Assembly: GCA_008632985.1 (NCBI GenBank)
Contig: QPGO01000124.1
Location: forward strand, 186,001 to 243,876
Source: Psammoneis japonica
Taxonomy: Eukaryota
Direction of reading: 5' to 3'
Length of the DNA stretch: 57,876 bases
Position 1 is the first letter of the stretch. Each line of letters starts with the position of its first letter. The notes below the pieces were generated by a model. It did not search any database. It was not told the DNA's origin and saw only the letters and a list, made by a program, of their open reading frames with translations. The position numbers and the translations under genes are program-made. This document shows positions 10,651 through 53,115 of this stretch, in pieces.

Positions 10651-12889
10651 CTTTTCACTTTGGAGTGTTCTAAAAGATGGCTTGCTTCAGTGGAATGATC
10701 AGATCCAGTCAGAAGAAAAGAGCCATTCTGTTGCTGTGGTTTCAAGTGCTTTGAAGGCAACAAATCAATTTGCTGTTGCTGTCCATGACACCATTCCCAA
10801 CTGTTCCCGGCGGGCATCATCATTTGTTGGTGATGCCCATCTCAGCTGATGGCAATGCATTCCTGCTGCACTGTTGGTGCACTGGGGTTGTGGGTTGGCT
10901 TGTTGCGGAGTTGCAGGGTGGAAGTGCAGCAGCACTTTAAACACAGAATTTTGGTTTTGTTTTGTCCTGCCTTTCTTTGCACTCTCATCCATTTGAGATG
11001 GTGGCGCAGCACCCACCACACCTCGCTGTGCTCAACAAAAATGCAGCTGATGCTTGCTGGGCACAGCCACACAGTGGCAAGGTGGCAACTCTCATTTGTG
11101 CACTTGCCTTGTTCACTGTGACCTGTGACAGCAGTGTCTCAATGACCGTTGGTGCAAAAAAGCCTCTCCCACCTTTTTCGGGTTGTTCAGAGAAGTGTCA
11201 CAGCTTGTGTGTGTGCATGGCTCTCATCACTGCAAGAACAAGAAGAAGGGGTGATCATGTTGCAAGATGGTGTCACCACTTTGTTTCTCACAAAGATCGC
11301 AGGTGCTGCTCAGGAGCTGCTCATGCCAATCAAAGGTGACACAACCAGAGCAGCAACAATGCAAATAAAAGCTTTGGGGTGGGAGCACCAAGGGCAAGAG
11401 AAAGCCACCAAATGACCCCTCAGAAATGTGCAGCTGCCTCTGTGTGCACCGAAAAGGAGTTGGCGTTGATGAGCAGCATCTCTTGACTGGGCAATGTTGG
11501 GATGCCATTTTGTCAATGCAGTCAAAAAGACATCTTCACAGCTGGGCTGAAGTGAGCATCAGTGCCAAGAAGGGTGCTGAGGCCCATGACACAAAAGGAG
11601 CCAATGACATGTGACACTCTCCTCTTTTGCTCCAGCAACTCTGGCACATCTTTTGTGACTCTCATGCAGCAGATCCCCCACGGATCTTTCCACCAACAAG
11701 CCCCAAAGTAATGACACAAGCTGTCTGATGAAGTCTGCATGCACGTTCGAAAAAGAGTGGAATCTGTCCTGCATTCATGAAACCCCATGAGCGCATTCGC
11801 TCCTCTTTGTGACAGCAAGTTAAGTTGTCACAGTGCGGCAGGTCATCAAACAGTGTGGGGTGCCATGCGCGCACATCCCCAACCCACGCCAAGGGGTCAT
11901 AAAATGTCCCCGACGGTGTTTTTGTCAAAAATCCAGAATCCAGAATCTGCCGCCTTTGGGGACAAACAGTGCACCCTCAGAGGGTGAGCTCTGGAGCCAT
12001 TGGCGGCACACAAACAACTGGCCTCCATTGACCACATGACGTCCCCATGACAAGTTGCAACCTTGCCACACCAACACAACATGGATGAATTTGTTGATCC
12101 AGATGTTGTTGAGTTCTCAGCACAAGATCATGAGCATGCGTTTGCTCCTGCTGCGAGGAAAGTGAAAGCATCGACAAGTGCCTGTTTTCATCGGACAAAG
12201 CTCTCGCAAGGAAGGAGCACTTTGAGAAAGGCTTTGAAGCCAGTGAAACTGCGAGATGGCAAGTGGAGAAGAGCCAATTTTGCAGCCAAGTGGAGGTGAA
12301 TGGAGCCAGCAACAACTTCCTCAAGTCATGCAAGAATGTTGTTCGGCCCACGCTCGCCAAGTGCCGACAGCTCAGTGGCATCATGGGCAGCGATGACATG
12401 AAACATGGCAACTTCACAAACTTGTGGCTGAACCAAGATCTTCACATGGCATTGCAAAATTTTGTCAATGCAAGAATCACCGCGCCCCACAACCAAGCCA
12501 CGTGCATGAAATCATGGAAATGATTCGGGTTTTTATGCTGCAAATGACACACGGCGAGACCGCGAATGCTCTTTTCACCGAGCCAAAGTGGCACGCCATG
12601 ACAAAAAAATCAAACATTGACCATGATCGACACAGTGTTGTTCTGAGAGCTCTTGGGGCACAGGAACCTGATGACTCCAATCTGTTCGATCCGGCCGAGC
12701 ACGACAATGCAAATTTCATGCCGTGCATTGAGGCTGAGGATGCAACAAGGTTGCACCGCACACAGAGACGAATTTTTACTCACCCAAAGTGGTGATTTTT
12801 TGAGTCATCACACATTGCCCCTTTGTTGTTTTAATCAAGTTAGTCAAACACAGCTTCAAACTGCCGTCATGTGGCAGCGCGCACGGAGA

Positions 12890-14310
12890 AGACAGATCTT
12901 GCGGCACAAATGCCGCCAGTCTAACGCAAGCAACGAGGACAGTGAACATAGAAAATGTGACAGCATTCCAAGCAGAAAGAATTGCTGTTGTCAGCTGTTG
13001 CTTGTTTCCTGTCTCTCTGTTGTTGTTTCTTCTTGCTTTTGCAGTGCAATGAGAGCAAGCTTGTCTCGCTGCCCACTTCAAGCCTGTCTCACACACTTCC
13101 TTCCCACTGCCATGCTGCACACAGTGATCAAAGCATTTTGCTTTTCAACTGTGCCACAAAGTGCTCTGAGTTGGCAATGCAAGAGGCGGCCAGGCAGCAC
13201 TGCTGCTGCTCTTGGCTGGCGGCCTCACAAGCAGTGGCTGTGCATGATGATGTGCACTCTTGAGCCACCACCTGGTGCCAAGACTGCACCGAGTTGACTT
13301 GCTTCTCCCTGTGTGGCTTCTTGACTTTGCCCACGCCATCCTCACTGAAGCAAGCCTTTGTTTTCTCACCCTGCTTTTGCCGCTGCTTGTTTTGCGCTGG
13401 CACACGCTGGAGAGGATCATTTCTGGCCACCTCGTCAGATGCTGCATGCCTGTGAATTTCTGCTCTTTTCATCTTTTCTTTTTGTTGTTGTTGTTCTGGT
13501 TGCTTTCTGCTCCAACACACAGCAGAGCTGCTTTTTTTGCTGCTTGCACTGCTGCTCTTGCCCGTGACCTTGGTGCCTCAGGAGAAAAGCATTGTGTTGC
13601 TGGGAGCTCTGCACCAAACACCAAAGCTGCAAAGACAGTTGCCCAGCTCTGCAAAGAAGTCATGGAGCACATGCTTGTGTTCTCATTTGACAAAAGCAGT
13701 GCACAACAGCAGAGAGACATCCTCAGCAAGCTCCGGTGCTTTCGCGCATGCTTGGAGATTCATCGACAAGCGTGCTGGAGCAGTTTTTTGTGAGGCAGCT
13801 TCAACGACAACTGGGTCACACCTCAAAGTGGTGTTGAAAACACTTCTCAGGGTGCTGCTTGGTCATGGACAACACACAGAGATTCTTGGCTGGCCTGCTG
13901 GGGTGGCAGCGAGCTTTTGCTGGGGTTGTGCTGCAAAGCATCTCACAACTGCTTGCTTTTGGCTCCCAAAACAGTCTCACAATTTTCCCTTTTTGGCATT
14001 TTGTTCACCCCTTCCACCCAGTTCTTCAAGGCACAGCACATGCCACTGTCCTCTGTGCAGGCTCTTGCCCCCTCTGTGGTGGCTTCTCTTCTTGATTGCT
14101 TCTTCATGTTGCTGCTGCTCTGCCTCCTCTTGCAGCCTCCTCCTCCACTGGTGTTGGTGTGGCTCAACACCCTGTTTCTGCACAAGCTCCTTGCCTGCAT
14201 GTTGCATTTTGCTTCACATGTTGTTCCTTGTCCTTGAGTGCAGCTGCCTTTGGTGACAGGTCCTTGTGCAGTTGTCAGTTCTCCCAACTTTAACATCCGG
14301 GTTACTTTTG
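12890..14310 (-). repeat. Dispersed repeat, probably a decayed transposon, ending at CCGGGTTACTTTTG
   Basis: Inverted homology to 40897-41640 (which begins CAAAAGTAACCCGG) and to 50510-51240. The end coincides with the switch to normal TA content. Confidence 0.75.
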
Positions 14311-14478
14311 CGAGATGAATCATCAAAACCTTCAGCCCACACCACGAATGCCGTTATTACCGGGCATCCGCCGGGCGGTATTTTGGTTTTGAGAAAGCGT
14401 CACCGAGGGCGTTGTGCATCGCTCTTGCTTTCCTACATCTCTCATCTACTCTATTTTGCTTCTATTTAATCACCTCTA

Positions 14479-16447
14479 ATGTTGACAACACGGGTGGAAA
14501 CGAACGTGTTGGTCGCTGCTGCATGTGGTTCGTCAAGGGCGTTGTTCTGGTCACAGCTTGTCGAGCTACTGTCGCTGCTTTTGTTGGTTTGTTCCGGAGA
14601 GGCCATTACATTTGCAGTGATTCCAAAAAGTACCGCAAGTCCCTACTTTCAACAAGCAGACCGTGGTTGTCAGGAAGCTGCCAAGGATCTGAATGTCACG
14701 TCTCTCTTTGTCGGCAAAGACGTTCTCTATACGAATTCAACGGATCAAGCAGAAGTACTGTCCAATCTGCTACAGAATGTTATCAACAATAGAACCGCCA
14801 ACAAAATAGATGGAATTGCCATTGCCGTGTTTAATGAAGACATTATGACACCGTTGATCAACCAAGCGATTAGGGAAGCCAACATTCCTGTTGTGACGTT
14901 TGATAGTGATGCGCCGCAAAGCAACCGTTTGGCGTACATTGGCACGGACAATCGCTTTTTGGGGACAGAAATTGCAAAAGTATTGAAGCAACTCAGACCG
15001 GAAGGAGGGACCTTTGGTATAATGTCACATTTCAGTGAGAATGTGAGGGAACGCGAGAATGCATTTCGTCGTGAAGTGCTTGAAAATAGCAATGGCAAGT
15101 GGGTGGAATTGGAGACAAGCCCGTCGTATCCGTCAACCTATGAGGAAGCACTCAACGCCACTTCTAATTTTGCAAAACTTGGTCCAACAGCCATTGCATT
15201 AATGTTGGAAGGACCCATGAGGGTAACAGAAGAATGGGAACGGATTGTTGACACTCACAAGGAAAAAGATATTGTCTATGTCAGTGGAGACGGTTCTACC
15301 AACCAACTTGATTTGTTGTCACGACGAAAGTGCCACGGCCTTGTAGCACAGTTACCGTACGAAATGGGATATGTCGCTATACAAGTCCTGCATGATTTGG
15401 TACAAAACAACAAAAGTAGCGTCGCTCAAGAATACATTGGTACAAATGTTTTGACGCACATTCAAGTTCCACTTATCCTTCCCCACCTCGAGGTCGATAC
15501 GAATCGCATTGGAGGCCTTGCCATTGTAGGCTTTATCCTCTTTGCCTTGGTTTCCATAGCTTCTATGGATTCATTGTATGGACGTTTACAACAGGAAGAA
15601 ACAGGTTGTCAAGGCATCACAGCCAATATTTCTTATGTTCGTTGCCCTAGGAGCACTCATCATGGTCTCGTCCATAGTGCCCTTATCGTTTGACGATAGC
15701 ACTACCAAGCTCGGTACGACTGGGATCTGTATGAGCGTACCATGGCTTAGCTTTATGGGATTCTCCATTACCTTTTCGGCCTTGTTCAGTAAAACACGTC
15801 GCATCAATCGCATCTTCAAAAAGGGTCATGCCTGTACACGAGTCAAGGTCGAACCGCATCAAGTATTAATTCCCGCTGCGGTTCTTGTTCGGCCAATGCC
15901 GTGGTCTTGATTTGCTGGACCGTACTGGATCCCTTGACCTATGTCCGTGAAAACCACGCAGGCACGGATGGGTGGAATCGAGTCATTTCTACTACGGCGC
16001 ATGCCGTTCGGATCACGGCTATCGGTACTTTGTGCCTCTCGCTGTGATTAACTTGATTGTTCTTGTTATTGCCAATTGGCAGCCTGTCAAGCGAGACATA
16101 TTACAACCGAGTTTTCAGAGTCCAAGTACGTGACGCTGGCGATGGTATCCATGTTGCAGTGCGGAGCCATGGGGATTCCTGTTTTGTTTTTTGTGAGGGA
16201 GGAACCGCAAGCGTTTTACCTGATTTTGGTCTTTATGTTGTTCATTGTGTCCATGGGAGTGCTTCTTTTGATCTTTGCTCCAAAAATTCGCCTTCAAAAG
16301 AAATATTCAAAAGCTACTCCCGAGCAACAACGGAAAATGATGGCAATTTCTGTCCGGGAGTCACACCAGCAAGAAAAAAGTACGACGCCGACGGTGCCAA
16401 ACACTCCTCCGCCAAGGGAAGAACCAACTTCGAGCCTCAAGGAATGA
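14479..16447 (+). CDS. Class C (GABA-B-like, 7tm_3) GPCR with an N-terminal RbsB-like periplasmic sugar-binding domain; about 5 small frameshifts in 15560-16085
   Basis: Signal-like hydrophobic stretch, then IPVVTFDSD, AYIGTDN and VAQLPYEMGY. 7TM motifs VVKASQPIFL, CMSVPWL, FSALFSKTRRINRIF, CWTVLDPL, EFSESKY and LIFAPK lie in shifting frames with no intron-sized gaps. Confidence 0.85.
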
Positions 16448-16614
16448 AAGAGAATGGTGACAGGTTTGGCACAGGACTTACGATGGGGTTCACAACAATT
16501 TCCATCTTAGGCATTATAGTAAGTATGAATGACATGCAACAGTATGAACCTGATGAACCAGCTGCGCATGCCTTGCTTGTAACGCTGCTGACCGACGACT
16601 GCTCAGTATTAACC

Positions 16615-18549
16615 TCATCGGACAGGCTCTCTCACCTGAAATGGAAATGCTTCTGATGCTCCAAATTCGTCACCTGACGTAATCAGATTGGCCCTATCGC
16701 TGGTGTCCTCTCCAAAAAACAATTGATAAAAGCCTCTCGTTTCAAATTTGCAACAAATTCCATCACCAAATGAATCTGAGATTTCAAAGATGCACGATGC
16801 TCCGGCTCTGGTTGTCAAGACCTCTGTCACGCGTTCATTTGCTCGGGCGTACGTTGAGGGATTCACCCTTATCAACTCCGAGTCGTCACAAACCATGCTC
16901 CACCCTGTTTCCGATGGATACTCATCCAGCTGAATCACAACCGTGAGTTTGACAGGAATGCTTGGAGTAGGCGAAACCGTTGGAGACAGCGTAGGAGCTC
17001 GAGTTGGAAACCGAGTCGGAGGTCGTGTCGTTGGATATGGGGTGGGAGGAGGTGGCACGTAAAATTGAGGCTCTTTAGTTGGAGAGCTTGTCGGAGCTGG
17101 CGTTGGTAGAGAAGTAGCAAAAAGACTCGTGGGTGGCGATGACGGTGGGCCGGGTGGCGCAGGAGGACCGATAATCGTACCAAATGGAGTCGGGCGTGAA
17201 GTCAAGGCGAATGTTGGCACCGAAGTAGGCAGTTGAGTTGGCGAAAGAGTTGGCGCTGGAGTTGGACTAGTCGTTGGCGCCGCAGTCGGAGGCGATGTTG
17301 GATCTCTCGTTGGGAAACTCGATGGCACAAACGATATTGTCGGAGATACCGACGGAGCCAAAGAAGGTCGGAAAGTGGTCGTTGGTGATGCCGACGGAAA
17401 GGTAGTTGGAGCCTGCGTCAGTGGAGCTACCATGGTAAAATCGACCTGAGTTTTAGACGTGAAATTGCCGTCCCCATTGGCCAGAAGAGTACCGTTAGAT
17501 GAATAAACTTGTCCATAGTGGATCCGGAAAAATCTCCCGTCTTCTAAGCCGTCGCCACCTGCATCCTCCAACACAAACGTGCATTCTTGTCCAACCGTAA
17601 CAGGAAACTGAGCAGTCAAATTGCGATTAGCACTCCTCTCATCATCCACTCCAATCGGAAAGTTTGCCCTATTGGTTCCGTCGCAGTCCAGTTTCCATCC
17701 CGTTTCGCGAGGCTTAGAGTCGAGCCCAACAACGACCGTAATCTGTTCTTGCGCAGTCGGCGCCGGCGTTGTGGTAGGGCTGCTGCTTGGAAACGAAGTC
17801 GACGGCGCCAATGTTGCTGGCGGTGAAGGCGAAGACGACCTTTTTGTAAGCGGAACAGCGATGCCAATAGACAAAGCCACTAAATTACAAACGAGGACAG
17901 CAACAGACAAACGGGTTTTCCAAGGATGGACAGGAATAGCGGACGCGGACGCCATTTCTTTTCCATCATTGTTTGAGGGTGTCACAAGTTCAGCCTGCAG
18001 GAGAGTTTCGCCTTGATGCTGCGGTGTTTGAGACGAAGCAGTATCAGCAGTAGTAGTATTTGCTTGCTGTTCCATCTCAATGTCAAACGCATCATCTTCT
18101 TCACGGTCACTGGTCAAGTCAACTCCAGGACCAGCCATGCGAACTGCACCAGGAACAACACCAGCATCAACCGGCACATCAGTAGGCTCAAAATGAGAAA
18201 GAGCAACTTCGTCACCTGAAGCTTCGCTTTTTGGCCCTTGTTGTGCTTGGCTTAGTCGATACCGAGACCCGGGATCTTTGTTGGAAATGTCGCTGTCATC
18301 AAGAACAGATTCTCCAAGAGATTCGGCCTTGTGGTCTTTCTTTTGACATTCATTTTGGTGACGTGAAGGTAGTCCTTTTATATCGTCACGTTGTTGCGGC
18401 TGCTTGTCATCAAATGAAGCTGCGTACGCTGCGTAGGAAATGCTGGAACTGGAAGCACCAGTTCTATCCGCACGCGATGCGTCTTTGTCGTTTTCGTTTC
18501 TGCATTCTTTGTCGGCGGCATGGTTCTTCATTGTCATGCACTCTGGCAA
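16615..18549 (-). CDS. Single-pass membrane protein (644 aa) with Pro/Thr/Ser-rich stalks and two copies of a LDxxPxETGW...DxxGDG domain; function unknown
   Basis: Intact ORF with normal codon content. Acidic disordered N-terminus, TM helix LSVAVLVCNLVALSIGIAVPL, PTxxPT repeats and a duplicated extracellular domain. Confidence 0.85.
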   Translation of the reverse strand: MPECMTMKNHAADKECRNENDKDASRADRTGASSSSISYAAYAASFDDKQPQQRDDIKGLPSRHQNECQKKDHKAESLGESVLDDSDISNKDPGSRYRLSQAQQGPKSEASGDEVALSHFEPTDVPVDAGVVPGAVRMAGPGVDLTSDREEDDAFDIEMEQQANTTTADTASSQTPQHQGETLLQAELVTPSNNDGKEMASASAIPVHPWKTRLSVAVLVCNLVALSIGIAVPLTKRSSSPSPPATLAPSTSFPSSSPTTTPAPTAQEQITVVVGLDSKPRETGWKLDCDGTNRANFPIGVDDERSANRNLTAQFPVTVGQECTFVLEDAGGDGLEDGRFFRIHYGQVYSSNGTLLANGDGNFTSKTQVDFTMVAPLTQAPTTFPSASPTTTFRPSLAPSVSPTISFVPSSFPTRDPTSPPTAAPTTSPTPAPTLSPTQLPTSVPTFALTSRPTPFGTIIGPPAPPGPPSSPPTSLFATSLPTPAPTSSPTKEPQFYVPPPPTPYPTTRPPTRFPTRAPTLSPTVSPTPSIPVKLTVVIQLDEYPSETGWSMVCDDSELIRVNPSTYARANERVTEVLTTRAGASCIFEISDSFGDGICCKFETRGFYQLFFGEDTSDRANLITSGDEFGASEAFPFQVREPVR

Positions 18550-19999
18550 AGCACTGATCTAAGAAGGAACCAGACCGACTAATCAAGAGAGGTCTGGTTT
18601 GTGTTGACGTGATGAGTTGGTGTATTGGTCGCTCTTTCTACTACTGCTATGAATACTCTACTCTCTCGAGCTAGTAGTAGTAGCTACTCTAGCTACTACT
18701 CTAGAGCTAGAGTAGCTAGCTACTACTACTAGCTAGTAGAGGAGGTAGAGGTTCAAAGGTGCGTTATCACGAGTCGTGATCACCCAATTCCCGCGCGTTT
18801 GTTGAGTCGGGCTTCAACATGGGTGCCATCACTCGCGTCGTAATCTGGTCGTAATTTCAAAATTGCTCGCACCGGCACAGAAAAACAAAGATGAAAACAA
18901 AATCGGTCATTTCGGTCATTGCATGCGAATAAATCCAGCTGCATGATGGCTCAGCCACTCACAGTGCCAGTGTGACAACGATGTGACGATCCCACAGACA
19001 CTCCAAGGCCTGTTGCAACTGCTTGCAACAAGTGAGTGCCGTTGGAGGATGACCCATCAAGATTTTGCAGGGGAGGGGCTGCATTCACCCAGCCACATTT
19101 TGGCACATGAGACATGCCCGCCCCCCCCTTCATGCAAAATTTCCACAGATGTGACAAATGGAAATTGCCGTGCTGATCTTTCGAAAATTGTTGTCACTTT
19201 TTGTCGACGCACCCACGGAGACTCATTTTCTCCACGACGTTTTCTTCCCTCACAGCAGCGTTCTTGCTCTCTTGTCTTTTGTCTCTTGGGTTGACAAGCA
19301 GCTCTGATGTTGGTGTCAGAGAAACAGGAAGGAGCAAATTTTGGCACTCAAATGGAAACCGGTTGACACACGTGAGCCAAGCACATGGAGCCGATGTTGC
19401 AGCCATTGTTGAGTGGAAGGGCAATGATGGGAGTTTGTGGAGAGTCGTTCCTTGCTTCAGAGTTTCTTTGCACAAAATGTCTTCCACTGTTGACTCAAAG
19501 TCTGGGCCAAAATGTTCAAAACCTGGTGGATCAGCAACTGTCTCCAATGTTGTTGGTCAAGCTTGCTGTTGCATCGGTTGGGCCAACGAGCAAGAGATTT
19601 GGGTCCAGCAAAGGTGGTGTTTGCAAACCAGCATCTGGTGTAGAAGCCAAACAATGCAAAGGATCCACACCGGGGATGCTTCCCACAAACAGTCAGGAGC
19701 TGAGTGACTCACCAGCCCACCACCACCTTGAGTGGCAAGAAATGCATTTTCCAACAGACCCCTGCTGAGTGAATTGTTTTTGCATTCATTTGGCAGTGCC
19801 AGAAGGAAATTGGGTCACACTTCTTTCAGAACCTGAGTGGTCAGCTCATCCAGTGGACAGCAATTGGAAACACTCAGGTTCCTTGCACCATGACCCTTCT
19901 TGCAGCTAGTCCCCTTGTGCACCATGGACACATTTTTGTCCCAAAGTTAACTCAAGCTGGCATGTTGCCAAAATGCGGCAGAAATTCAGGGGGGGCTTC

Positions 20000-20590
20000 T
20001 TGATGGGTCATCCTCCAATGGCGCTCACTTGTTGCGCAAGCAGCTGCAACATGCCTCAGAGTGTCTGTGGGATTGTCACATTGTCATCACACTGTGACCA
20101 AAATGACAGATTTTGTTTTCATCTTTGTTTTGCTGTGCAACCAATTTTGAAATTGTGGCCATGTCACAATGCGAGTGATGGCACCCATGTTGAATCCAGA
20201 CTCAACAAATGTGCAGGAATTGGGTGATTGCGACTCGTGACTGCTGCACTTTTGCTGAACCTCCACCTGCCAGCTGGAGTGGCAGCAGTGGAAAGAATGT
20301 GCACCAACTCATCACATCAACACAAACCAGACCTCTCTTGATTGGCTGGTCTGGCTCCTTTTAGATCCATGCTTTGCCAGAGTGTGTGACAATGAAGAAC
20401 CAGCCGCCAACAAAGATGCAGAAACAAGAATGACAAAGACGCATTGCATGCGGACAAAACTGGTGCTTCCAGTTCCAGCATTTGGCAACGGCCGAAGACA
20501 GGAGATTTTTCCAGATCCACTGTGCGGAAGTTTGTTCAACTGATGGCACTCTTTTGGCCAGTGGGGACAGCAATTTCACTCAAGACAGCG
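20000..20590 (+). pseudogene. Inverted, internally deleted, hypermutated duplicate of the 644-aa gene and its upstream region
   Basis: 20000-20483 is the reverse complement of about 18440-19060. 20490-20585 reads RRFFQIHCAEVCSTDGTLLASGDSNFT versus GRFFRIHYGQVYSSNGTLLANGDGNFT in the gene. Confidence 0.9.
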
Positions 20591-21474
20591 GTGGACTGCT
20601 GAGTCACTCAGCTCTAGACTGTTTGTGGGAAATCATCCCCACTGTGGATCCCCTTTGCATTCCTTGGCTTCCACACCAGATGCTGGGCATGTTGCATGTG
20701 CCAAAATGTGTCCAAAAATCAAGTCGGTTGTTGTTTCACCCTTGTCACCTGCTCCCATCCAAGCAGGAGTGCATTGTGTCTGCATGAAATTTGGAAAATC
20801 TCCTCAAGTGCTTTCTACATGGAACCCCCTTTCTCCAGCTTGGCATGTTCCTTGCTTGCATCAGTGCTTAACTGAGCAGCATGAGTCACCCGAATGTTTT
20901 GGCAATGATGTGACAGAACAGTTTTGAGACTTCCAACAGCTTTGTCAACGACTTTTCTGATTGAAAGCATGGCCCCTGTGCTTTCCTTTGCACCTGGACA
21001 ATCTTCAAGTTTGATTCACAGCTCCCTGTCACAGCTGTGTTGTGTGTTTGCTGACTTCTGCTTGCATTTTGGATCACAGAAAAAGGCTTCTCTTTCACAC
21101 AAGGACAGCAAGGGAGGTTCACCTTTGACCAAGGGCAGCAAGGCAGGATCACAGTCTCCCAAACACCAGATCCAGATCCTGTCGCGCAGCTTCCTCATGA
21201 GAACCTCAATTGTCAGATCACTCCATCCATGCTGCTCCAACACGTCTTGGTCAATTTCTCTGTTTGTGTCATTTTCCCAACCATCAACTCCACATCCTGA
21301 TGAGCTCTTTGCAAGCTCTGACAGCTCCCTCAGATGTTTGCCGTCAAGCCCTTCCTCCAAAAGCTGTGAAAATGGAGTTGTTGCACCATCACCTTCTGCC
21401 CTCAACGGGGATTGTTTCAGCCAGGTTGAGCAAACGACAGCATTCTCTTGGCACCACTTTCATTTGCAAGCCCT

Positions 21475-24480: not shown

Positions 24481-24848
24481 TGGCACTCGGCAAGATGTGG
24501 GAAAGCAACAATCAAATGAAGACAGAGGAGTCTTGTGAGATTTTTGTGCCCGTGTGGTTTCTCAAACATTCGTGGGACCTGCTCCGCACTAGCCAGTTGC
24601 TTGCACTGGGTCCACACGACACACTGCGTGTCATGCTGCAAATGTAGCCTCACCAGAGTCTAGTTTTTACATGCGGCCATGTTCCACCAGTGGCGTGTTA
24701 GCTCTGGTGTGTCAGCTCTAGCTGTGTCGGTCCAATCGACAGCAATCATGACACAAAATCATTCACAATCTCGTGGCCACAATTCACGCTCGTTAGCAAG
24801 ATCCACACTTGCTCACACTTCTGGTTCTTGCCACACTAAACACACAGG

Positions 24849-25221
24849 AATGATGTCAAACAACATGTTCAACAAAGGCGACATTGTCAACATTGCTGGT
24901 GGGAAGTGCGCGGGCGAGCAGGGAAAAGTCAAGAAGGTCACAAAGAAGAAAGTGAAGGTGTTTTTGCATGACAATGATGACATCCACTGCATCTCACAAA
25001 AGCATTGCAAGAAAGTGAACCCGGAGGAAGAGATTGAAAAGTTGTGCCTCAAGCTCTTCCATGTGAAAGTCACCACCAATGGCATCGCCACACTTTCGTC
25101 TCACATGGTCACAGCGTTCAAAGCACACCAAAAGGACAGCGAGCCCAAGAGGGCCAGGAACAATCGTTCAGGCAACAACATGGTGGAACAAAGTGTTTGC
25201 GGATTGAGCCAGTTGTTTTAA
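24849..25221 (+). pseudogene. Small KOW-motif ORF inside the Harbinger-like element
   Basis: FNKGDIVNIAGGKCAGEQGKVKKVTKKKVKV matches the KOW pattern, with GKY changed to GKC. Confidence 0.55.
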
Positions 25222-25249: not shown

Positions 25250-25997
25250 TCAACTGGTGTTTTAGCTTCTTCTCCTCCCGGAGCTTGCACCAAGCTGTGC
25301 ATTTGCGTCTCTTAATTTCTCGACAGATGTGCTTCCGGAACACTTCAAGAGAGAACACCTGACACTCCTTGCGGGACAGATGGAGTTCTTGGGGCGCCAG
25401 CACTTCATGTTTTTTGTCGTCAATGTCCGTCTTTAAAGAGGCTTCCGCCTTGGATCCTTCCCAACGTGGTTCGCCGAGAGAGTTGAATGCCTTCTTCGGG
25501 AAGAGGCGCCTGTCGTGAGCAAGTGCAAGTTCTTCCGGAAGATTGGTGACGGTCTTTCACGGCTTTTTTTCGACAACAATCCACTCGAGCTTGAAAATGC
25601 TCAAAGCTAAATTCCACAAACTCTGGACGTTGCCAGCAGACATCCTCGGCACACATGCTGCTGTCGTCAGTCGAAACATTGAATTTTGTAGGTCCCGCTG
25701 GAGCAGCACTTTTGCCAAGCTCTTCCTCCAGCAGACAGCCTCATCTTCCACTTCTTCCTGCCAAACAAATCCGTTGCTCCGCAGTCTTTCCAACAACTCA
25801 GCCTTCTTGCCAGACACCGGGAGCCCATGTTCTCGCAAGAGATTTTTTAGCTCCGCAACTTTCATCTTTGCGATCCCATCAACACAAATCTCCGCTTCAT
25901 GATTTCCTGTCCTTTGGACCTCCTTGTCTCCCTTCCTTTTCATCTGCTCCTCTTTCTTTGAGGACGCAGCGGCCTTGGTTTGATGTCTGCAGCCCAT
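25250..25997 (-). pseudogene. SAP-domain accessory ORF of the Harbinger-like element, frameshifted
   Basis: MKVAELKNLLREHGLPVSGKKAELLERL is a canonical SAP motif. Followed by two WxxSxAxxxLxxD repeats. Confidence 0.7.
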
Positions 25998-41645: not shown

Positions 41646-42021
41646 AACGCATTCCAGCCCCAGGTGGGACTCAGTGTGACATTGGGCCCGCAGAATTCTA
41701 CGTGCGAGCTCCGCAGTGCAAGAATTCATCCAATGGATGTGTTTGTCTTCAACATCAAACAAACAGCCAAGTTTGTGGTGCAATCATGCCTCTTGCCACT
41801 CGACGTTTTTGCAAGTGCGCCTTCCTTGCACGATTCTTAAGACATTGTAGAATCGCGCTGTAACAAAAAATGTCAAAAGTTTTTGGACGGATCGCTCAAC
41901 AAGTGCACCGTAAAATGACACAAAATGTCGAAAAAATCACGTAGAAATCTATGTGCGTGACATGCGACGTGATTCAAAAAACTGTTGATGTCACAGTTCA
42001 GCAGTGCGAGGTCCCACCTGG
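41646..42021 (-). mobile_element. MITE copy (about 375 bp), inverted relative to 45716-46104; abuts and truncates the gypsy 3' LTR
   Basis: Near full-length reverse-complement match to 45716-46104. Ends are ACGCATTCCAGCCCCAGGTGGGAC ... GTCCCACCTG. Confidence 0.9.
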
Positions 42022-44958
42022 TGCCCCACGCATGTGCCAGGCGCTGAAAAAGAAGATGTGTTACGACTTTGTCGTTGTGAAAATTGTGAGCTAGTTTAGA
42101 GTGGAGAAAGTGGGATCGTGCGAATGGGGAATCTTGCCAAATCCCCATTCGTTCGCATTTGGATCGCATCAAATCGATCGTGCGTTCGCATTGTGGATCA
42201 TGCGAATCAAGCCATCACGCACCATGCACGAGTGATGTCATCGTGTGGAATCACGCCACCATTGTGGGCCAGACGACAGGCTAGTGTGCTTCACACGGAT
42301 GCTCTCTTGGCATCCTTCTGGAATTGCCCAAGACCCAGAGCCACACCCTCCTGTGGTCGTGTGCTTCCCAGGTGCGCGTTGACAACACTGCGTTGTCACG
42401 CACAAGAGGCTTGTGCATGGTCTCGCCGTGTTGTCCAGCAGCGAGGCATGCTGCACACTCCCCCATGATCAGGGCTGTTAAGTGACAGGATGTCTCACTG
42501 GTGACAGGGTGCAATCTGCCGCAGATTGCACGCATCTGTCAGCGCTCCGTTCTGGATGCACAACGTGCCGTTGTCACACACACGGACAACTCTGGCGGGT
42601 CCTGCAAAGCTGTCAGAACCGCATTTAGAGGATTGTTCTGTTTGACAAGCACCAATTGCCCTGCGGCACATTGACACTCCTTGCGTTTCTGATTTTCATG
42701 CTTGTCATTCAAGTGAGTGAGCTTCTGCTTTCTGGTTTCTGTGCACTTCCACTTGGCACGATGGGCAACAGACAAAACCGCATCGCGTCCGAAGACCGAT
42801 TGCACAGGACTTGCACGCGTGGTCATGTGTGCCGCAGCTCTAACGGCGAAGGCTGCTGCGGAGAGGATGCCACTCCATGGGTCATCTTCGTCCAGCTCCA
42901 TGTCCTGCACTGAAAAGGAACGTGCCATGTCACCAAGTGTCTGGTGCACACGTTCCACTGTGGCATTCGCCTGTGGATTCTGCTTGCTTGTGGGTTTCTT
43001 CAAAATCCCATGGTCATTTTTAGTCATCTGGCTAAATTCTGCCATAAATTCTGTCCCACGGTCACAAACCACCTGGGTTGGCCACGGATGTCTGCACAGC
43101 CACGTTTGTTCTATGACGTTTGCTGCGACGTCTGCGCGTTTCATGGACACTTCTTCAATCTCGAACCACCCGGTTGCTGGCTCGATCATTGTGACTGCCC
43201 ACAATTGCAAAGTGTCCTTTCCGCGTCTTTGAATTTTATGTGGCCCCATCACATCTGTGCACAGAGTCTCCTGTGGAATTATCTCGGCGACCTTTTCTGG
43301 TGGCTTCCCACAATGCTGCGTTCGGCGTTTTGTCTTCTGACATCAATCGCACTTGACGCACATAGAATGCACCGTCGACCTCACACCAGGCCAGCAGAAG
43401 TGCTGGGCAACAGATGTTTCCGCACGTGTCTCACCTGGATGACACAGTGTCTTGTGGCACCATTCAGTTGGCGGAACCTGCAATGACTGTGGTGCTGCGA
43501 TTTTGTCCTCATGACAGATTAACTGTTGTGATGACCCTCCCCCACAATGCGCGCGAATGGAGCAGTCGGACGAGTCCTTGGCTCGTGAGAGCAGGCGCTT
43601 GTCCTTTTGTTGTTCTTTTTGAATGCGCTTGAAGCCAGTGGGCAGAGATGCATCGTCTTGCGCGTCTGCATTAAAAGCTTCATGCAAAGGACGACTCGAT
43701 GGAGTGTCTTTTGCATCTGGATTGGCCTCGGAAGGCAAGCTGGGTGCTGGCCGAAGGCGACTGAGAGCATCAGCGACTGGGTTGTGGGCACCCTTGACAT
43801 GGTGTAATTCGGGACCGCATTCTTTGCATGTCAACCGCCAGCGCATGATGCGCTCGGCATTGAATGCTTTGTGTGCAAGATTTTTATGATCAGCACATGC
43901 AAGCACACAATGACCGAGGAGAATCGTTCGAAATTCTTTCAACGTCTCCACAATGGCGAGTGATTCTCTCTCAGTTGTTGCACAGTTTAAATGCGCACTG
44001 TTGAGCTTTCTGCTGCAAAAGGCGACAGGTTCATCATCTTGGGATGCAACTGCTCCCAATTGACATTTAGAGGCATCGGTGTGTGTCTCAAAGGGTTTGT
44101 TAAAATCAGGATGTGACAACAAACATCATCCGACATTGCCCGTTCAACGGTTTCGAACGCCTCGTCTTCAACGGACGTCCACTCCCACTCAACAGTCTCA
44201 CTTGCGAGTCGTGTTGGCGGAGCCAAGACTTCAGAACGTCTGATCCACGCGTCATGGCAGCAGTTCACCACACCAACAAATGACCGCAGGTCGCGTTTGT
44301 TGGCTGGGGTCGCGATTCGCTCAATGGCGTCAACTTTGTCAGGTGTTGGTCGCACTCCGTCTCTGTTGGCCAGACAACCCAAGCACTCTAATTGGGTTTG
44401 ACAAAAATGAGATTTAGTTGTGTTGACTTTTAGTTCTGCTTTCTGGACCCTCAACAAAACTTCTTCAAGTTTGTTGAGGTGATCTTCACAGGTGCCTTTT
44501 GTCACGACGAGAAGGTCATCTGAGTGCGTTCGAACGAACGACAGATCTTCAAATGAGCCTGACATGCGTTCTTGGAAAATGTCTGGCAAATTGCACAACC
44601 CCACGGGCAGTGCCTGCATCTCACACTTGCCCCACGGGAAGATGAGCGTGCAGAGCTTCTTGCTGTCAGCATCCAATCGGATGTGACAACAGCCCATGTT
44701 TAAATCCAGCGATGCAGCCCACATGAAGCCTTTGAGCTTGAGCAGCACATCTTGGATGTGAGGAATCGGACAAGGCAATCGCTTGATCTGTTCATTCAGC
44801 TCTCTGAAATCATCAACAAAGCGTGCCGTTGAGTCTTTCTTCGGCATGACAAATGATGGAGCTGCCCATTGGGATCGGTTGACGTGCTTGAGAACACCGA
44901 CACGCGCTGGGCGTTCCATTTCTTTACGCAGCGCAGCTTCGTGCGCACGAGGTGCTTT

Positions 44959-45404
44959 TGCAATGTGCAGCCACTGACAAGAGTCAATGCATCACGGCGA
45001 CGTGTTACAGCCTTTAAATGTCACAAAGGGCGTGACAAAATAACCTTTTGTCTGCATGCATGCTGCACCATGAATTCACAGCGGAGTGGTTCATCGTAAA
45101 ACCATTGGGCAGGAGGCCAGGGGTTCGAAACCCGAGTGGGAGTTGTCTGCAGCAACGTTGGTCACTGTCGAACGCGTAAAACTCTGTGCAGTTCTGCATG
45201 TTCCTTCGCACGCACCCACACTGTTCCGCCAAAACCGTGCAGTGTCAGCACACGTTGGTAAAGAGCCGCATGGACGCGTGACACATGGGGAGGAGTGCAG
45301 CGTGCAGCTGCCAATGAGAGTCAATGTATCACGGCGACGTGTTGCAGCCTTTAAATGTCACAAAGGGCGTGACAAAATGACCTTTTGTCTGCACGCATGC
45401 TGCA
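44959..45404 (+). mobile_element. TRIM-like miniature LTR element (446 bp) nested in the gypsy pol
   Basis: 109-bp TG...CA direct repeats at 44959-45067 and 45296-45404. PPT GGGGAGGAG at 45287-45295. TSD CTTT at 44955-44958 and 45405-45408. Removal restores the host frame ARPCKAPRAHE. Confidence 0.9.
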
Positions 45405-48302: not shown

Positions 48303-51300
48303 TTAATGGTTTGAGTCTTGCCCTTGCCATGTTTAGTGTTCATAGCCACAAACAAGATTGGAGTAAGATGAGTCTTTTTAACTTGTTTGCGGGATTGGCC
48401 TGCAACTCGTGTACGATGGCAATTCAGTTGTTCATTTGTGCATTCATCCAATGCATTAAAACTGCGGGGGTCACCGATCCAGTGTTTGTCATTCATTGTC
48501 CCGGACGATTGCTTGTTCGTTGGACTTTGTTGGCGAAGAAACGTGACAATTGCATTCAATGTGCTTTTGTTCGAACATTTGGTGTGAGTTGAGCTCACGT
48601 CATTGATGACGTCACAAGGGTCTTTCTGGGTGGGCGTGCGTCGGAACTGCCTGACACCGGCCTCGTTTGGCGTCGAAGGCTCAATTAAAATGGCAACAGA
48701 TGATGTCATCAACCTAAGCAGGAAAATGTCCGACGTGTCTTCATGTCTCACGGATTTCATTTATGAAAATAACAAACACTGCATTTGCGGTCAAATGCAG
48801 AAATGAAATTATTTGGATTCGTTGGCAGTGCAATGCTCGTGGAAACAATGCGAAAAACAACAAACACTGGATGTGCACCCTGCGCGATTTCGATTAGATC
48901 AGCGATGCCTGTGCCTGTGTCGTGTCGGCCCCCTTCTCAGGTGCCCAAATCTTCGGAATCACTTAAGTTGAGGTCGCGGAAGTGATTGAGCTCCTCCTCG
49001 CGTGCCTTGCGCTTTTTCTGAGCGTTGGCAAAGAACTCCTCGACCTTCGATCCGATGAGAGTGTCAATGTCTTCCTCATTCCGAGGTTTTGTGTTGGGCT
49101 TGCTGCCTCTGTCATTGGAATGTCCAGTCTTGACACGTTTCACGTGGTGCTTGAGCTGACGGCAATCCTCCGCATGATGTCCACAGTCAGTCCCGTGTGG
49201 CATGCACGACTTCTGGGTGTTCGGTTGGGTCGGGATCAATGACTCAGGATTGTCCATTCTACGTCCCCGCTTGCGTGGAATCTTAGCATTTTGGTCCAGG
49301 TTGCCTTCGGCAAGCTCGACCTGCTCGATGCGCTTGCAGAGCTGCACAAATTCGGTGATGGCATGCGCCAACGAGTCAAAATTCTGCAACGTCATGAACT
49401 TCTGCCATGCGTTTGGCACACCACACTCGAACACATTGCACAGTTCGTCATTGGGCAATGGTGCGGTGCTTCTCCATCCTCCGTCACGGGTGGAAACTGA
49501 GAGATGTGGCCGTTAATTTCAACAGCCCTTGCGACGCAGTCACGAGTGGAAACCTCTGCGGGCTTGCGCATGAAGCGCCTCAGATGACACTTCTGCAATG
49601 GTGCCGCCCCATGTGGGAAGACACTTTCCTCTAGCTTCGCGATGCACACTGCGTGTGCAGCATTGGTTTCGGATGCCTGCGTGTCAGCGGCATTGTTGAA
49701 TGACGTCAGAGCATCGCCCTGTGGTGGGTCACGCACAAGGGCAAATTTCGCTGGCCCGGTCATCATGTTTTGTCCTTCGTGCACGCGATCCACGTTGCGC
49801 AGAAAGATTGGGAGTGTCTCGCATGTAGCCGCAGAAAGGTGTGGGATGCCCATCTTGTGCGTTGGACTGTCCGGATCAGCAGGGTTGTTGCGCAGTTTGA
49901 ACATCTGGCACTCGCCCTGCTGTGGCTCTTTCTTCTCCGGCCGTGCAAACGGAATCGGCGGCTCAACCCGCTTCTTCATGGTCGTTTTGAGATTTGTTGG
50001 TCCCACCAACATTTCGTAGTTTTGTTTCTGTGGATTTCGTCACCTCGCACAACATGCGGGAGCAATGTTGCTGTGCCCCATGCATGCACCAGGCGCTGAA
50101 AAAGAAGATGTGTTGCGACTTTGTCGTTGTGAAAATTGTGAGCCAGCTCAGAGCAGAGAAAGTGGGATCGTGCAAACAGGGAATCTTGCCAAATCCCCAT
50201 TTGTTCGCATTTGGATCGCATCAAATCAATCGTGCATTCGCACTGTGGATCATGCGAGTCAAGCCATCACGCACCATGCATGAGTGATGTCATCGTGTGG
50301 AATCACGCTGCCATCGTGGGCCAGACGACGGGCCAGTGTGCTTCACACGGATGCTCTCTTAGCATCCTTCTGGAATTGCCTGAGACCTAGAGCCACGCCC
50401 TCCTGTGGTCGTGCTTCCCAGGTGCGCGTTGACAATGCTGCATTGTCACGCACAAGAGGCTTGTGCACGGTCTCGCCATGTTGTCCAGTGGCAAGGCATG
50501 CTGCACTGGACCTGGAGTGCGTCTGCTTTGCCAAGACCAACAAAAAGGAACAGTGCCAGCAGCAGAAAGCAGCTCTGCATGTTGGAGCAGCAAGCAGCCA
50601 GAGCAGCAACAGCAACAAAAAGATGAAAAGAGTGGAAGTCACAGCATCTGAGGTGGACAGAAATGACCTCCAGCATGCACTGGGACAAGGTGGGCAGCAG
50701 CAGAAGCAGCAGGGCAAGCAAACAAAGGCTTGCTTTTGTGAGGAGGGGATGAGCAAAGTCAAAAAGTCATGCAGAGAAAAGCAAACCAGCTTTGTGCAGC
50801 CTTGGTCAGGTGGTGGCTCACGCACACGTTGTCATGCACAGCCACAGCTGCTTGTGAGAGACACCAAACACGCAGCACAAAAGAGGGTGTGCTGCTGGTC
50901 AGCTCCCAGCTGCAAGAGCTTGGCCTCTTGCATCACCAGCTCAGGACACTTTGTACAAAAGTTAAAAAGCAAAATGCTTTGACCAGTGTGTGTGGCACGG
51001 TGACAGGAAGTGGGTGAGACAAGCCTTGTTTGAGAGATGAAGGGGGGTTCAGCTGCCAAGCACTGCTGCAAAGACGAGAAGAAAAGACTAAAGAGAGATG
51101 GGAAACATGCAACAGCTGACAATGGCACCTCTTTCTGCTTGGAATGCCTTTGCATTTTCTGAGTTCACTCTCCTCGTTGCTTGTGTTAGACTGGTGAAAT
51201 TTGTGCCAAGATCTGTCCTCTTTCTTGCAGAAAAATTCAAGTCAGAAGCACAAAAAACATGCCAGAGCCTGCACCACCAGTGGCGTAGAATGGTTCAGGG

Positions 51301-52799
51301 TGCACACAAATTTTGTGCCACAGTGGCGCACGTGATTTTTACATGAGATTCTACATGTGCCCAGTGGCACAGATCCAGCACAAAAGCAACAAATTTTTGA
51401 AGTTTTGTGGCGTACAAAGTCAGTGTGTTGTGGCATAGATTCGACATCAACAAGGCTTCGCGCAACACTTGCAACAACCAAGACAACAGAAAACCGCTCG
51501 CAAAATGTTGCTCCCACTTTACACGTTGCAGCTGATGTGGTGTTGTTCATTCATCTCACTCCTTTTCATCGTGGAACCTCCTGATGACACAGAGGGTGTC
51601 TTTCAGGCATGTGCATTGGTCTGATTGCCCCCCCTCTTTGGGCAAGAATGGGGCATGTGGTTTGCTTCTTGAAGACACCAGACCAGCCACAAGGAGCTTG
51701 CAGTGGAGAGCTGGCAAGCAAAGCACTGGGCTGCGCCACAAGGCACTGGCTGATGGGACAGCATTGGGCAAGCACAACCACAAGCATTTTCCTGAGGGCA
51801 CTTTGCACCACATGTGACAAAGCCAGAAACATGGACTGAGAAACACAGACAGAGCCAGGTTTTGCTCAGCTGGCCACCCAGAATTCAAGCAGGGGTGCAG
51901 CCAGAATGAAGAAGGCTGCAGGTCAATTTGAGGTCCCAGTGGGAACTTGCTTTGCATGTTTGTTAACAGCCTGCTGCAGAAGCCATGGCTGCGCTGGAAA
52001 TCCAAAGGTGGCTGTGCGTGATGGGGTGGATCTTGCAAATTCTCTCAAGATTTTGTCATGCATGAGGCCAAAATTTGGGTGCAGCATCCACAGATGCTTT
52101 GGGAGAGATGCTGTGAATTTGTCAAGGCAGGCACTTCTGACAGCATGGGTGGGGAAGGCCAGTGCTTGTTGCCAGGGATCTTTGTGAAGATCTTTTGAAG
52201 AGGGTGACACTGCATTTTCTCACTTGGAAACTTCAGAGAATTGTTTGAACACAGTGGGGCTAAACCCGCTAAAGTGTGCATTGAATTTTGGAGAACAAAG
52301 AAGACACAGATCCGCAGCAGTGGCCACCAAGCTGGCGGGGCAAGGCTTGGAAAACAAGCTGCTCAAAAAGCCATGATGGGCTGGCAGCAAAACAATCCTC
52401 ACAAATGATGCCACTGTCAAGCTGCCACAGACTGGCACAACTCCACAGTTCTCCAGCATGCTGTGGGAGCACACAAAGCCACAGCACCTCAAGTCACAGA
52501 CAAGCTGCTCTTGCAGGCAGAAGGAGCCCAGCCAAGGGTTGCAAGTTGACAGCCCCACAGCATCTTCTCTTTTTCTCCTTTTTCCTTTTTTCCTCTCTCT
52601 CTTCTCCTTTTCAGTTTATTCTTCTGAGCTGCCTCCGGCGGCCACCTCTTTCATTCTTCCCACATGCCGAAATCTCACGTTAGTGCGCGCTGCATCACGG
52701 CGGTTTAAAGCTGTGTTTGACTAGCTAGATTAAAATGACAAAGGGGCAATGTGTGATGACTCTAAAAGTTACCCGATTAAGCATGTAACAAATTCGTCT

Positions 52800-53115
52800 T
52801 TAAGTACGGTATAACCTTCTGACGTCGTTTCCCATATGTACGGTATAAAATTTGTACCGTACATAAGGTCAATCACTTAGGATGACCTTCCACGTCAGCG
52901 AAGTCGACATGTCCGTTCCCCAATCGGCCTTTCTGTCATTGTATTTAAATGTGGATGTCATTTTATAGCGTACATAAGGGAGATTTATAGCGTACATAAG
53001 GGAACAATGACCCTTCATCGTCAGCAAGTCCATATGTACGCTATAAACTTTATAAAGCTACTTACTTTTAAAGGATGACCGTCTGCGTCAGCAACATCGT
53101 TATGTACGCTAACCC
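52800..53115. repeat. Cluster of about 7 TATGTACG(C/G)TATAA motifs in both orientations
   Basis: Copies near 52803, 52835, 52853 (rc), 52963 (rc), 52985 (rc), 53034 and 53101. Confidence 0.75.

Follow-up and report, generated by a model that had tools for sequence, protein, structure and literature searches.

Why should the duplicate of a gene start be riddled with substitutions at TA and CG dinucleotides when the gene beside it carries an intact reading frame? The question is posed by a stretch of 57,876 nucleotides from Psammoneis japonica (contig QPGO01000124.1, positions 186,001 to 243,876; hereafter the window). The gene in question, which we call the 'live gene', is an open frame of 647 codons on the reverse strand (16615..18558) that belongs to no Pfam family. 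In its protein, an N-terminal region is accompanied by a single predicted membrane span, by linkers rich in Pro, Thr and Ser, and by a D-x-x-P-x-E-T-G-W domain in two copies. An Atlas look-up with this domain returned hypothetical proteins only (scores of at most 0.86), a homologue search with residues 262-385 gave no match, and a search among longer proteins yielded one weak relative, P0153, with 26% identity. Two haplotype-like variants of the gene are present and differ by an ordinary spectrum of substitutions (16 transversions among the 34 differences listed). Together with a convergent receptor-like gene containing Peripla_BP_4 and 7tm_3 domains (Pfam), it occupies an island of normal TA content (14291..18930). 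Rfam and tRNA scans of the whole window found no RNA genes.

The duplicate is composed of two pieces. The first, a frameshifted pseudogene fragment on the forward strand (19998..20483) whose first ATG has been changed, is the inverted counterpart of 18438-19062 (BLAST E 1.5e-76; 67% identity counting gaps, 82-89% in ungapped blocks). The second (20478..20579, forward strand), in which Tyr has become Cys twice, derives in inverted orientation from coding sequence inside the live gene (17459..17562, reverse strand; 81% identity, E 6e-22). Both inverted arms were recovered independently of BLAST by a repeat search, and they still hold in common five exact matches of 21-27 bases each. At the joint the two pieces overlap by 6 bases without splice signals, and the sequence missing there amounts to 875 bases of in-frame coding DNA lacking GT/AG ends. 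The duplicate thus takes in the promoter, codons 1 to 34 and a further, internal piece of 34 codons from a predicted membrane-protein gene; since it extends some 520 bases upstream of the ATG and bears no splice or poly-A marks, an origin as a processed pseudogene (retrocopy) was rejected. The spacer between the arms (19063..19997) is TA-poor, with three TA in 935 bases, and encodes no protein family. A second inverted repeat found by the repeat search (19628..19734 and 20577..20686) brackets the duplicate and is part of a rearranged mosaic. The duplicate as a whole is an inverted pseudogene copy of the gene start, partial and rearranged, and it lies within transposon-derived DNA.

The two copies differ in a highly site-specific manner. 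In the well-aligned blocks of a MAFFT alignment, of the 11 TA dinucleotides in the gene copy ten read differently in the duplicate, nine of them as CA or TG, as do 25 of the gene copy's 32 CG dinucleotides, 22 of them as TG or CA. The reverse changes are all but missing: none of 88 CA/TG reads TA in the duplicate, and a single reverse change stands against the 22 from CG. Differing bases make up 11 of the 22 within TA, 26 of the 65 within CG and 38 of the 445 elsewhere, and the excess over elsewhere is significant for both dinucleotides (Fisher's test, P 1.7e-6 for TA and 7.7e-10 for CG). This bears out the original prediction that a non-transposon host sequence had been mutated at TA, and also at CG, with substitutions enriched at TA and the changes confined to the duplicate. 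All five DNA pairs quoted in its support occur in the aligned sequences, and the change of IHYGQVYS to IHCAEVCS is present in the translated pair. For one of them, GGTAGAGG/GGTGGAGG, the register chosen by eye is better than that of MAFFT; it lies in a CTAG-rich microsatellite upstream of the live gene (18636..18745), which is missing from the duplicate and which other contigs from the same sample skip (joints 18648/18649 to 18743). The earlier emphasis on TA has to be corrected, as CG changes outnumber TA changes in the pair.

It had further been claimed that the pair displays the polarity of mutation directly. From the pair alone it does not; the polarity comes from transposon proteins compared with 83 outgroups and from a metagenomic family. 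The direct outgroup, P0153, is uninformative: when its repeats are aligned with the two domains of the live gene, the two Tyr columns are not conserved, and the first has Tyr or Cys in none of the five other repeats. The polarity assigned to the pair consequently rests on the transposons and on the intact frame. The principal witness is a degenerate gypsy-type pol on the reverse strand (42539..44991; Pfam RVT_1, RT_RNaseH, Integrase_H2C2 and rve). The element has the hallmarks of Ty3/gypsy, with reverse transcriptase, RNase H and integrase in order and direct-repeat flanks that are 91% alike and have TG...CA ends. The 529 residues read from 42539-44125 include no Tyr at all, compared with 2.4-6% in most relatives. 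In all seven columns in which at least 50% of the 83 outgroups have Tyr, the pol has Cys (five) or His (two), and its other conserved residues are mostly retained. Alignment with Ty3 in the PDB likewise places Tyr opposite Cys and opposite His; the integrase had no match there.

Independent metagenome contigs, although they come from a single set of related samples and represent an element family other than that in the window, point in the same direction. Seven of 80 loci have TA at 0.15-0.39. Comparison of the loci L011 and L012 gives 48 changes from TA to CA/TG and none in reverse, 25 columns of the family contain TA, CA and TG together, and at column 48 Tyr is retained in lightly hit copies and replaced by Cys or His in hit ones. 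The polarity was read from such three-state columns and from the protein outgroups rather than from a distant outgroup locus (L001), which at 70 TA-variable columns has TA in 27, CA/TG in 26, CG in three and another state or a gap in 14. Outcomes on the two strands are interleaved (runs test, z 0.79), and they agree with the window in preferring a 3' pyrimidine, that is, T-A-pyrimidine. On these comparisons the direction of change can be regarded as established: T:A to C:G, converting Tyr (TAY) to Cys or His (TGY/CAY).

How far does the mutated state extend? The TpA observed/expected ratio is 0.09 in 46.3 kb, or 80% of the window, as against 0.63 in five islands totalling 11.2 kb. CpA/TpG reaches 1.64 in the TA-poor DNA, where CG stands at 0.57 compared with 1.03 in the islands, so that TA loss and CpG loss occupy the same domains. 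The TA that survive in the window are described by a multiplicative model that ranks the 3' neighbour T>>C>G>A. Remains resembling a DNA transposon (34576-38135) are depleted too. Pfam matches were obtained for only four of 113 long frames, mostly in TA-poor DNA (7tm_3, KOW4_SPT5 below the cut-off, SAP and RVT_2). Selection against TA in transposons was considered as a cause and rejected, since dead proteins and host fragments are equally hit.

The contention that only one copy of the pair is hit holds for most of the gene-side arm. The portion 18438..18930, which covers the first 34 codons and about 390 bases upstream, has a normal TA density (5.35 TA per 100 bases over 18183-18930) and no trace of even light mutation. 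It fails for the distal 132 bases of the arm (18931..19062), which have no TA where 5.2 are expected (P 0.0055), three CG and 33 CA+TG, and which show CA/TG flips relative to the duplicate. This TA-free end places a border of the mutated domain inside the gene-side arm, some 390 bases upstream of the gene. A second hit and spared pair consists of 12710..12884, with three TA, and 52683..52854, with 16, the latter in an AT-rich island without recognisable coding sequence. The three AT-rich spared islands gave no Pfam match in 38 frames. As they and promoter DNA are spared, the sparing is not merely a matter of selection on coding sequence. In the repeat 13588-14321/40887-41627 the transition between TA-poor and TA-normal DNA falls at an identical place in both copies, which implies that borders can be inherited by duplication; the duplicate of the live gene may itself have been mutated elsewhere before it arrived at its present site.

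The TA-free stretch 18931..19062 corresponds to a multi-copy piece (depth 653 in the bin 18938-19054, about 200 beside it), and the edge of the arm carries a loose end at 19061. That the TA-poor state on the gene side begins where the multi-copy piece begins would suit a homology-dependent process akin to repeat-induced point mutation (RIP), with the live copy only seeming spared, because lineages in which it was hit were lost to selection or because it was repaired from the other haplotype. The hit sequence is indeed a duplicate, the transposons are repeats, and the AT-rich islands that are spared look unique. Such a process would nevertheless have had to leave the spared arm unmutated despite the five exact matches between the arms. 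It would also have had to drive TA to 0.02-0.1 of expectation in old DNA, where similarity between copies is down to 65-76%; pairing-dependent RIP is not known to continue anywhere near that far. Selection, moreover, could not have shielded the promoter and synonymous TA site by site. We regard a RIP-like origin as improbable.

The gypsy element also dates the changes. Its putative LTRs, identified by direct-repeat comparison (42021..42456 and 50073..50506), differ in 36 columns, of which 33 oppose TA or CG to CA or TG: 13 are CG versus CA/TG, 14 belong to seven CA/TG flips and six are TA versus CA/TG. The other three are transitions of other kinds, and there are no transversions. These differences, the seven flips included, imply that change took place after insertion, in place and independently in each copy; if TA content is taken as normal at the time of insertion, a model gives expectations of about 4.6 flips and 4.8 single changes. 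This comparison largely refutes the notion that transcripts were edited by an ADAR-like A-to-I activity on double-stranded RNA and fixed by reverse transcription, provided that the direct repeats are the LTRs of one insertion. The type of substitution would fit (A to G after U/T), the locus contains an inverted repeat, and many of the hit sequences are retroelements. The host fragment, however, includes promoter DNA and lacks splice and poly-A marks, the DNA-transposon-like remains are affected as well, both strands are hit in interleaved fashion, and the preferred 3' neighbour is a pyrimidine and not G. RNA editing thus seems very unlikely.

The same element bears on whether a dedicated mutator is needed at all. 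Slow passive decay in silenced DNA, through base modification at TpA or biased repair of T:G mismatches, raising the transition rate at TA much as 5-methylcytosine does at CpG, would be in keeping with the domains common to TA and CpG loss and with the lower TA of older DNA (0.02-0.05, compared with 0.17 in the young gypsy element), which suggests gradual accumulation. Yet about 80% of the TA in this young element has already gone while its CG still stands at 0.86 of expectation, and the putative LTRs diverge outside TA and CG in only 3 of 434 columns. The TA process must hence be faster than CpG decay and separable from it. A rough estimate, resting on three background differences, puts the per-base TA rate on the order of 100 times that of the background and at several times that of CpG, and we know of no spontaneous chemistry that gives TA transitions at such a rate. 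Passive decay is the least unlikely of the competing accounts, but we still judge it doubtful.

An artefact of assembly, base calling or chemical conversion might be suspected, because the stretch is present in one sample only, from which both the assembly and the confirming contigs derive. Short accurate contigs match TA-poor stretches with 0, 0 and 1 differences, the gene islands are normal in the same contig, and the signature recurs in JGI metagenome contigs and in predicted proteins from Logan, ENA and JGI. This explanation strikes us as the least credible of all.

Any account has to accommodate the duplicate together with the site specificity, polarity, in-place timing, context preference and sharp domains described above. 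We propose that two processes act on transposon-derived DNA: ordinary CpG decay, which converts CG to TG or CA, and a far more rapid transition from A:T to G:C that is limited to TpA and yields CpA or TpG. The latter would strike integrated DNA on either strand without strand coordination, favour T-A-pyrimidine (equivalent to purine-T-A) and continue until some 90-98% of TA has been lost. It would be restricted to a domain of transposon or silenced DNA with its border some 390 bases upstream from the gene, and the gene copy would escape because the process is confined to that domain, not for want of a homologous partner. The enzyme responsible would be a DNA adenine deaminase, or else an activity that modifies thymine to a product mispairing with G; the targeting cue would probably be chromatin or silencing state. 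Control of the mutator by silencing state, and not by pairing, is plausible given the sharpness of the domains, the almost complete depletion and the sparing of non-coding islands. We give this explanation as a whole, TpA-specific mutation plus CpG decay in a transposon or silenced domain with the gene outside its border, slightly better than even odds (roughly 0.55). At the level of their listings, full-text literature searches returned no description of TpA-to-CpA/TpG hypermutation, and PMC7884421 has no bearing on it.

The closest parallel is RIP in Neurospora and other fungi, in which dense dinucleotide-specific transitions likewise wreck transposons and duplicated host DNA in place, leaving sharp compositional domains beside normal genes and element proteins in nonsense and missense decay. 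The direction is opposite: RIP converts CpA/TpG to TpA, consuming the former and enriching the latter, whereas here TpA becomes CpA/TpG, as the fate of outgroup Tyr, the metagenomic changes and the dinucleotide ratios all attest, and GC content is not lowered. The target base is A or T instead of C, one of the two duplicated copies escapes where RIP mutates both (a similar escape is seen in the second pair), depletion continues in strongly diverged copies, and the host is a diatom-like stramenopile and not a fungus. Fungal RIP also requires a cytosine methyltransferase of the RID/DIM-2 type and takes place at a premeiotic stage. Decay of 5-methylcytosine at CpG looks identical to the CG component, with its deficit confined to the same, putatively silenced, domains, but is unable to turn TA into CA or TG. 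ADAR hyper-editing and APOBEC editing of cDNA also produce clustered deaminase-type transitions in repeats, and ADAR converts A to G and favours a U on the 5' side. These activities act before integration on RNA or nascent cDNA in a strand-specific manner, whereas the changes described here affect both strands of integrated DNA, non-retroelements included; the 5' T agrees with ADAR, the 3' neighbour ranking does not agree with its preference for G. TadA/ADAT enzymes convert A to I, which is then read as G, where the context is similar to U/T-A-C, and the T-A-Y motif would resemble this context, as it would that of the laboratory adenine base editors derived from them; the substrate of the natural enzymes is tRNA, and we are aware of no natural homologue that acts on DNA. 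Enterobacterial very-short-patch repair, biased from T to C at a short context and responsible for CTAG depletion, also removes a TA-containing word from the genome; that effect is weak, genome-wide and driven by mismatch repair, compared with the domain-limited and near-complete erasure seen here.

Tentatively, then, diatom-like algae might possess a genome defence that chemically mirrors RIP, in which a natural enzyme edits A (or T) at T-A-pyrimidine in double-stranded chromosomal DNA and is aimed by the silenced state of transposons rather than by repeat pairing. To our knowledge RIP is the only well-described case in which a cell deliberately mutates its own repeated DNA, and cytosine is the base deaminated by all DNA-mutating defences known to us (RIP, AID/APOBEC); a rapid change from A:T to G:C at TpA, limited to domains, would add a second chemistry. 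Were the enzyme a deaminase, it would be without precedent as a natural DNA adenine deaminase that a eukaryote uses on its own genome, and in either case the process would point to a natural enzyme of interest for base editing. It would explain why transposon remains are so poorly recognisable, with no Tyr, few stops, long spurious frames and no Pfam matches, and would distort gene prediction and repeat annotation. The gene and its duplicate, once identical, 1-2 kb apart and of opposite fates, amount to a natural experiment in which targeting by pairing and targeting by chromatin state become directly testable. Tyr codons and TAA/TAG stops would disappear under such a defence, and any host fragment that landed in silenced transposon DNA would turn TA-free.

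TpA is depleted across the window, with an observed/expected ratio of 0.22 overall and 0.02–0.15 in most 1-kb bins, and CpA/TpG stands at 1.5–1.9 in 1-kb bins. Five islands retain normal TA levels (2241–3205, 6143–9618, 14291–18930, 39446–40916 and 52617–53281; 11.2 kb in total, TA 0.63). In the TA-poor 46.3 kb the values are 0.09 for TA, 1.64 for CA/TG and 0.57 for CG, and arithmetic on the window's dinucleotide values indicates that the CA/TG gain approximately matches the combined loss of TA and CG. The first and the last two islands are AT-rich (GC 0.39–0.43), with 6.8–7.8 TA per 100 bases and stops in every frame. None of their 38 frames has a Pfam match, and sparing therefore extends beyond recognisable coding sequence; they are unmutated non-coding DNA set in TA-poor DNA.

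The window is eukaryotic. Its genes include a mitochondrial ATP12 chaperone domain gene (open frame 6398–7534, nearest Atlas cluster mostly diatom), a metallo-beta-lactamase-fold gene, and a receptor-like gene (14470–16444, plus strand) with a periplasmic-binding-protein domain, Peripla_BP_4 (E 5.9e-40), and the final part of a seven-helix class C receptor domain, 7tm_3 (E 5.2e-10). The latter is convergent with an intact gene of 647 codons (16615–18558, minus strand), hereafter the live gene, which lies inside an island; its partial inverted duplicate lies in TA-poor DNA. The remaining DNA consists of gypsy and copia remnants and, presumably, Mutator-like remnants, assigned by a motif. Two long frames at 34576–38135 (minus strand; 650 residues with 3 Tyr and 597 residues with 2 Tyr) lack a Pfam match; one carries a C-x-C...C-x-H pattern that we take to be SWIM-like, as in Mutator-type transposases, and the frames suggest that DNA transposons are also affected. 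A SAP-domain frame (25560–26036, minus strand; E 5.9e-14) and a frame with a weak SPT5 KOW4 match under the Pfam cut-off (24664–25218, plus strand) lie in TA-poor DNA and each lack Tyr altogether; they may be further mutated host-gene fragments or genes living in the TA-poor state. An assembly gap of 353 N occupies 26354–26706 within TA-poor DNA.

The duplicate pairs 18438–19062 with 20483–19998 and 17459–17562 with 20579–20478 (repeat search and BLAST). Its first piece derives from codons 1–34 of the live gene together with some 520 bases of DNA preceding the start codon, and its second from an internal 34 codons; the 875 bases separating these sources are missing, and the joint has a 6-base overlap and no splice signals. 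A frameshift and an altered first ATG make the duplicate a pseudogene fragment. Five exact matches of 21–27 bases are still common to both arms. Transitions account for 50 of the 71 substituted columns of the whole alignment, in which every intact/duplicate pair quoted by the original prediction is present. Within four well-aligned blocks, from which sites were counted, the duplicate has altered 10 of the 11 TA of the gene copy (nine to CA/TG) and 25 of its 32 CG (22 to TG/CA), and TA replaces none of its 88 CA/TG. Differences fall on 11 of 22 bases inside TA and 26 of 65 inside CG, compared with 38 of 445 bases outside these dinucleotides (P 1.7e-6 for TA and 7.7e-10 for CG). The proposed enrichment at TA is thus borne out, and mutation at both TA and CG is seen, although CG, the larger class of change, had been under-weighted. 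In one sample the live gene (17300–18437) occurs as two variants about 3% apart (e.g. 7 of 214 bases differ), a pattern expected of divergent haplotypes, and the depths of the two variants added together are about twice that of the duplicate region. Upstream, a CTAG-rich microsatellite with partial palindromic structure (18636–18745) is skipped by other contigs of the sample, with joints from 18648/18649 to 18743, and is therefore polymorphic or allele-specific.

The pair had been thought to reveal the polarity of mutation directly, which it cannot do by itself; the direction is supplied by transposon proteins. One search found no homologue of the live gene and another a single 26%-identical protein, in whose domain alignment the two Tyr columns are not conserved. 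The degenerate gypsy pol (42539–44991, minus strand) contains, over 42539–44125, no Tyr in 529 residues, Cys making up 4.9% and His 4.7%; in most relatives Tyr is at 2.4–6% and Cys at 1–2%. A search of 1.84 billion representatives supplied 83 relatives for alignment; P0030, a further, Tyr-free relative present in the alignment, was kept out of the outgroup set. The window copy has Cys in five and His in two of the seven columns where at least half of the 83 carry Tyr, and mostly retains Pro, Ala, Trp, Arg and other residues. Ty3 structure sequences give a matching picture at two Tyr. Replacement of Tyr by Cys or His corresponds to TAY becoming TGY or CAY, i.e. a change of TA into TG/CA. The same direction is indicated by the intact frame of the gene copy and by its allelic variants, whose substitution spectrum is ordinary (16 transversions in 34 differences among those listed, the best-supported 40 of 93).

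An artefact is the least probable of all explanations. Only one sample contains this stretch, and its short, deep contigs match TA-poor parts with 0, 0 and 1 differences; this agreement, although not independent of the assembly, argues against a long-read base-calling artefact. Public data add independent support: among the best 150 protein relatives six more have 0–0.3% Tyr and P0134 has 0.6%, and those looked up, six in all, belong to Logan, JGI and ENA assemblies. Seven of 80 metagenome loci encoding relatives, all from one set of related samples, have TA 0.15–0.39 and CA/TG 1.4–1.6. This family includes lightly mutated members: between loci L011 and L012 there are 48 changes of TA to CA/TG and no reverse, and TA, CA and TG coexist in 25 columns. 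The Tyr of column 48 (99% conserved) is kept in L011, L023 and L028, with Cys or His in its place in the mutated copies. At 70 TA-variable columns the distant outgroup L001 is divided, reading TA 27, CA/TG 26, CG 3 and other or gap 14 times. At the level of sequence evidence the phenomenon is real and strong.

The timing of mutation can be read from direct repeats with TG...CA ends that flank the gypsy pol (42021–42456 and 50073–50506), putative long terminal repeats (LTRs), which are identical when an element inserts. They differ in 36 of 434 columns: 13 CG/CA-TG differences, 7 CA/TG flips (14 columns), 6 TA/CA-TG differences, 3 other transitions and no transversions, a flip being one ancestral dinucleotide mutated on one strand in one copy and on the other strand in the other. 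Modelled with island-like TA on arrival and independent loss of about 79% of TA per LTR, the expected numbers are about 4.6 for flips and 4.8 for single differences, close to those observed, which places the mutation in integrated DNA rather than RNA or cDNA. This young element has TA 0.17 and CG 0.86, so the TA process is separable from CpG decay and faster; a rough estimate, based on only 3 background differences, is of the order of 100 times background per base. A tandem array (33746–34483 and 47193–47388) has units of about 190 bases that are 90–93% alike and differ mostly by CG/CA-TG changes and flips; the gypsy region contains a related unit.

The TA that remain in TA-poor DNA show an excess of TTAA, and ATAT and GTAT/ATAC are nearly gone. 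A multiplicative model fits the ten context classes, with loss ranked by the base 3' of A as T>>C>G>A. In the metagenome family a 3' pyrimidine favours the TG outcome and a 5' purine the CA outcome, one rule read from both strands, whose outcomes are interleaved (runs test z 0.79). Attack on A (T-A-Y) or on the paired T (R-T-A) would be equally compatible with these data. RNA editing is very improbable. Models based on ADAR, APOBEC or a retrocopy do not account for the in-place timing, the strand symmetry or the neighbour preference.

The gene-side arm carries 5.35 TA per 100 bases at 18438–18930 and none at 18931–19062, where 5.2 are expected (P 0.0055). The mutated domain thus has its border within the arm, some 390 bases upstream of the gene's start codon, and the claim that only one copy is hit mostly holds: up to 18930, though not beyond. 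Compared with the duplicate, 18931–19062 shows flips and one site reading TG where the duplicate retains CG. It coincides with a depth peak (653 versus about 200 alongside) and a loose end at 19061, and probably represents the margin of a multi-copy element. A second hit/spared pair is formed by 12710–12884 (3 TA) and 52683–52854 in an AT-rich island (16 TA). In the inverted repeat 13588–14321/40887–41627, about 72% alike, the TA-poor/TA-normal border falls at the matching position (14291/40916), and borders are therefore copyable and the duplicate may have arrived already mutated. The last 55–80 bases of this repeat extend into TA-normal DNA in both copies and are better conserved (e.g. an identical 17-base stretch with GTTAC); either copying of the unit followed its mutation, or its end is protected.

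The TA-erasing process resembles RIP in logic and differs in the defining features tested, namely direction, dinucleotide and mutation of both copies. Homology pairing combined with selection for the spared copy is improbable, given an untouched homologous arm and depletion that continues in copies merely 65–76% alike. A passive modified-base or repair bias is slightly less improbable. The CG component fits ordinary methyl-CpG decay. We favour, at a probability of about 0.55, an enzymatic process that would be aimed by a domain cue, transposon or silenced DNA; sharp borders and the spared promoter and non-coding islands, together with the untouched arm and the low-identity copies, appear to back such a cue; the copyable border of the 13588–14321/40887–41627 repeat counts against certainty. 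The observation behind the original prediction is thus confirmed and its interpretation partly supported. The T-A-Y motif resembles that of tRNA adenosine deaminases and of base editors derived from these enzymes. A full-text literature search, with subscription journals and supplements outside its scope, found no description of a TpA-erasing process; a prior report is possible, and the phenomenon is apparently undescribed so far. Since TA-poor DNA has hardly any TAA or TAG, long spurious open frames occur there in all six frames (92 of at least 150 codons in the window), and gene finders would be expected to over-predict genes in such DNA.
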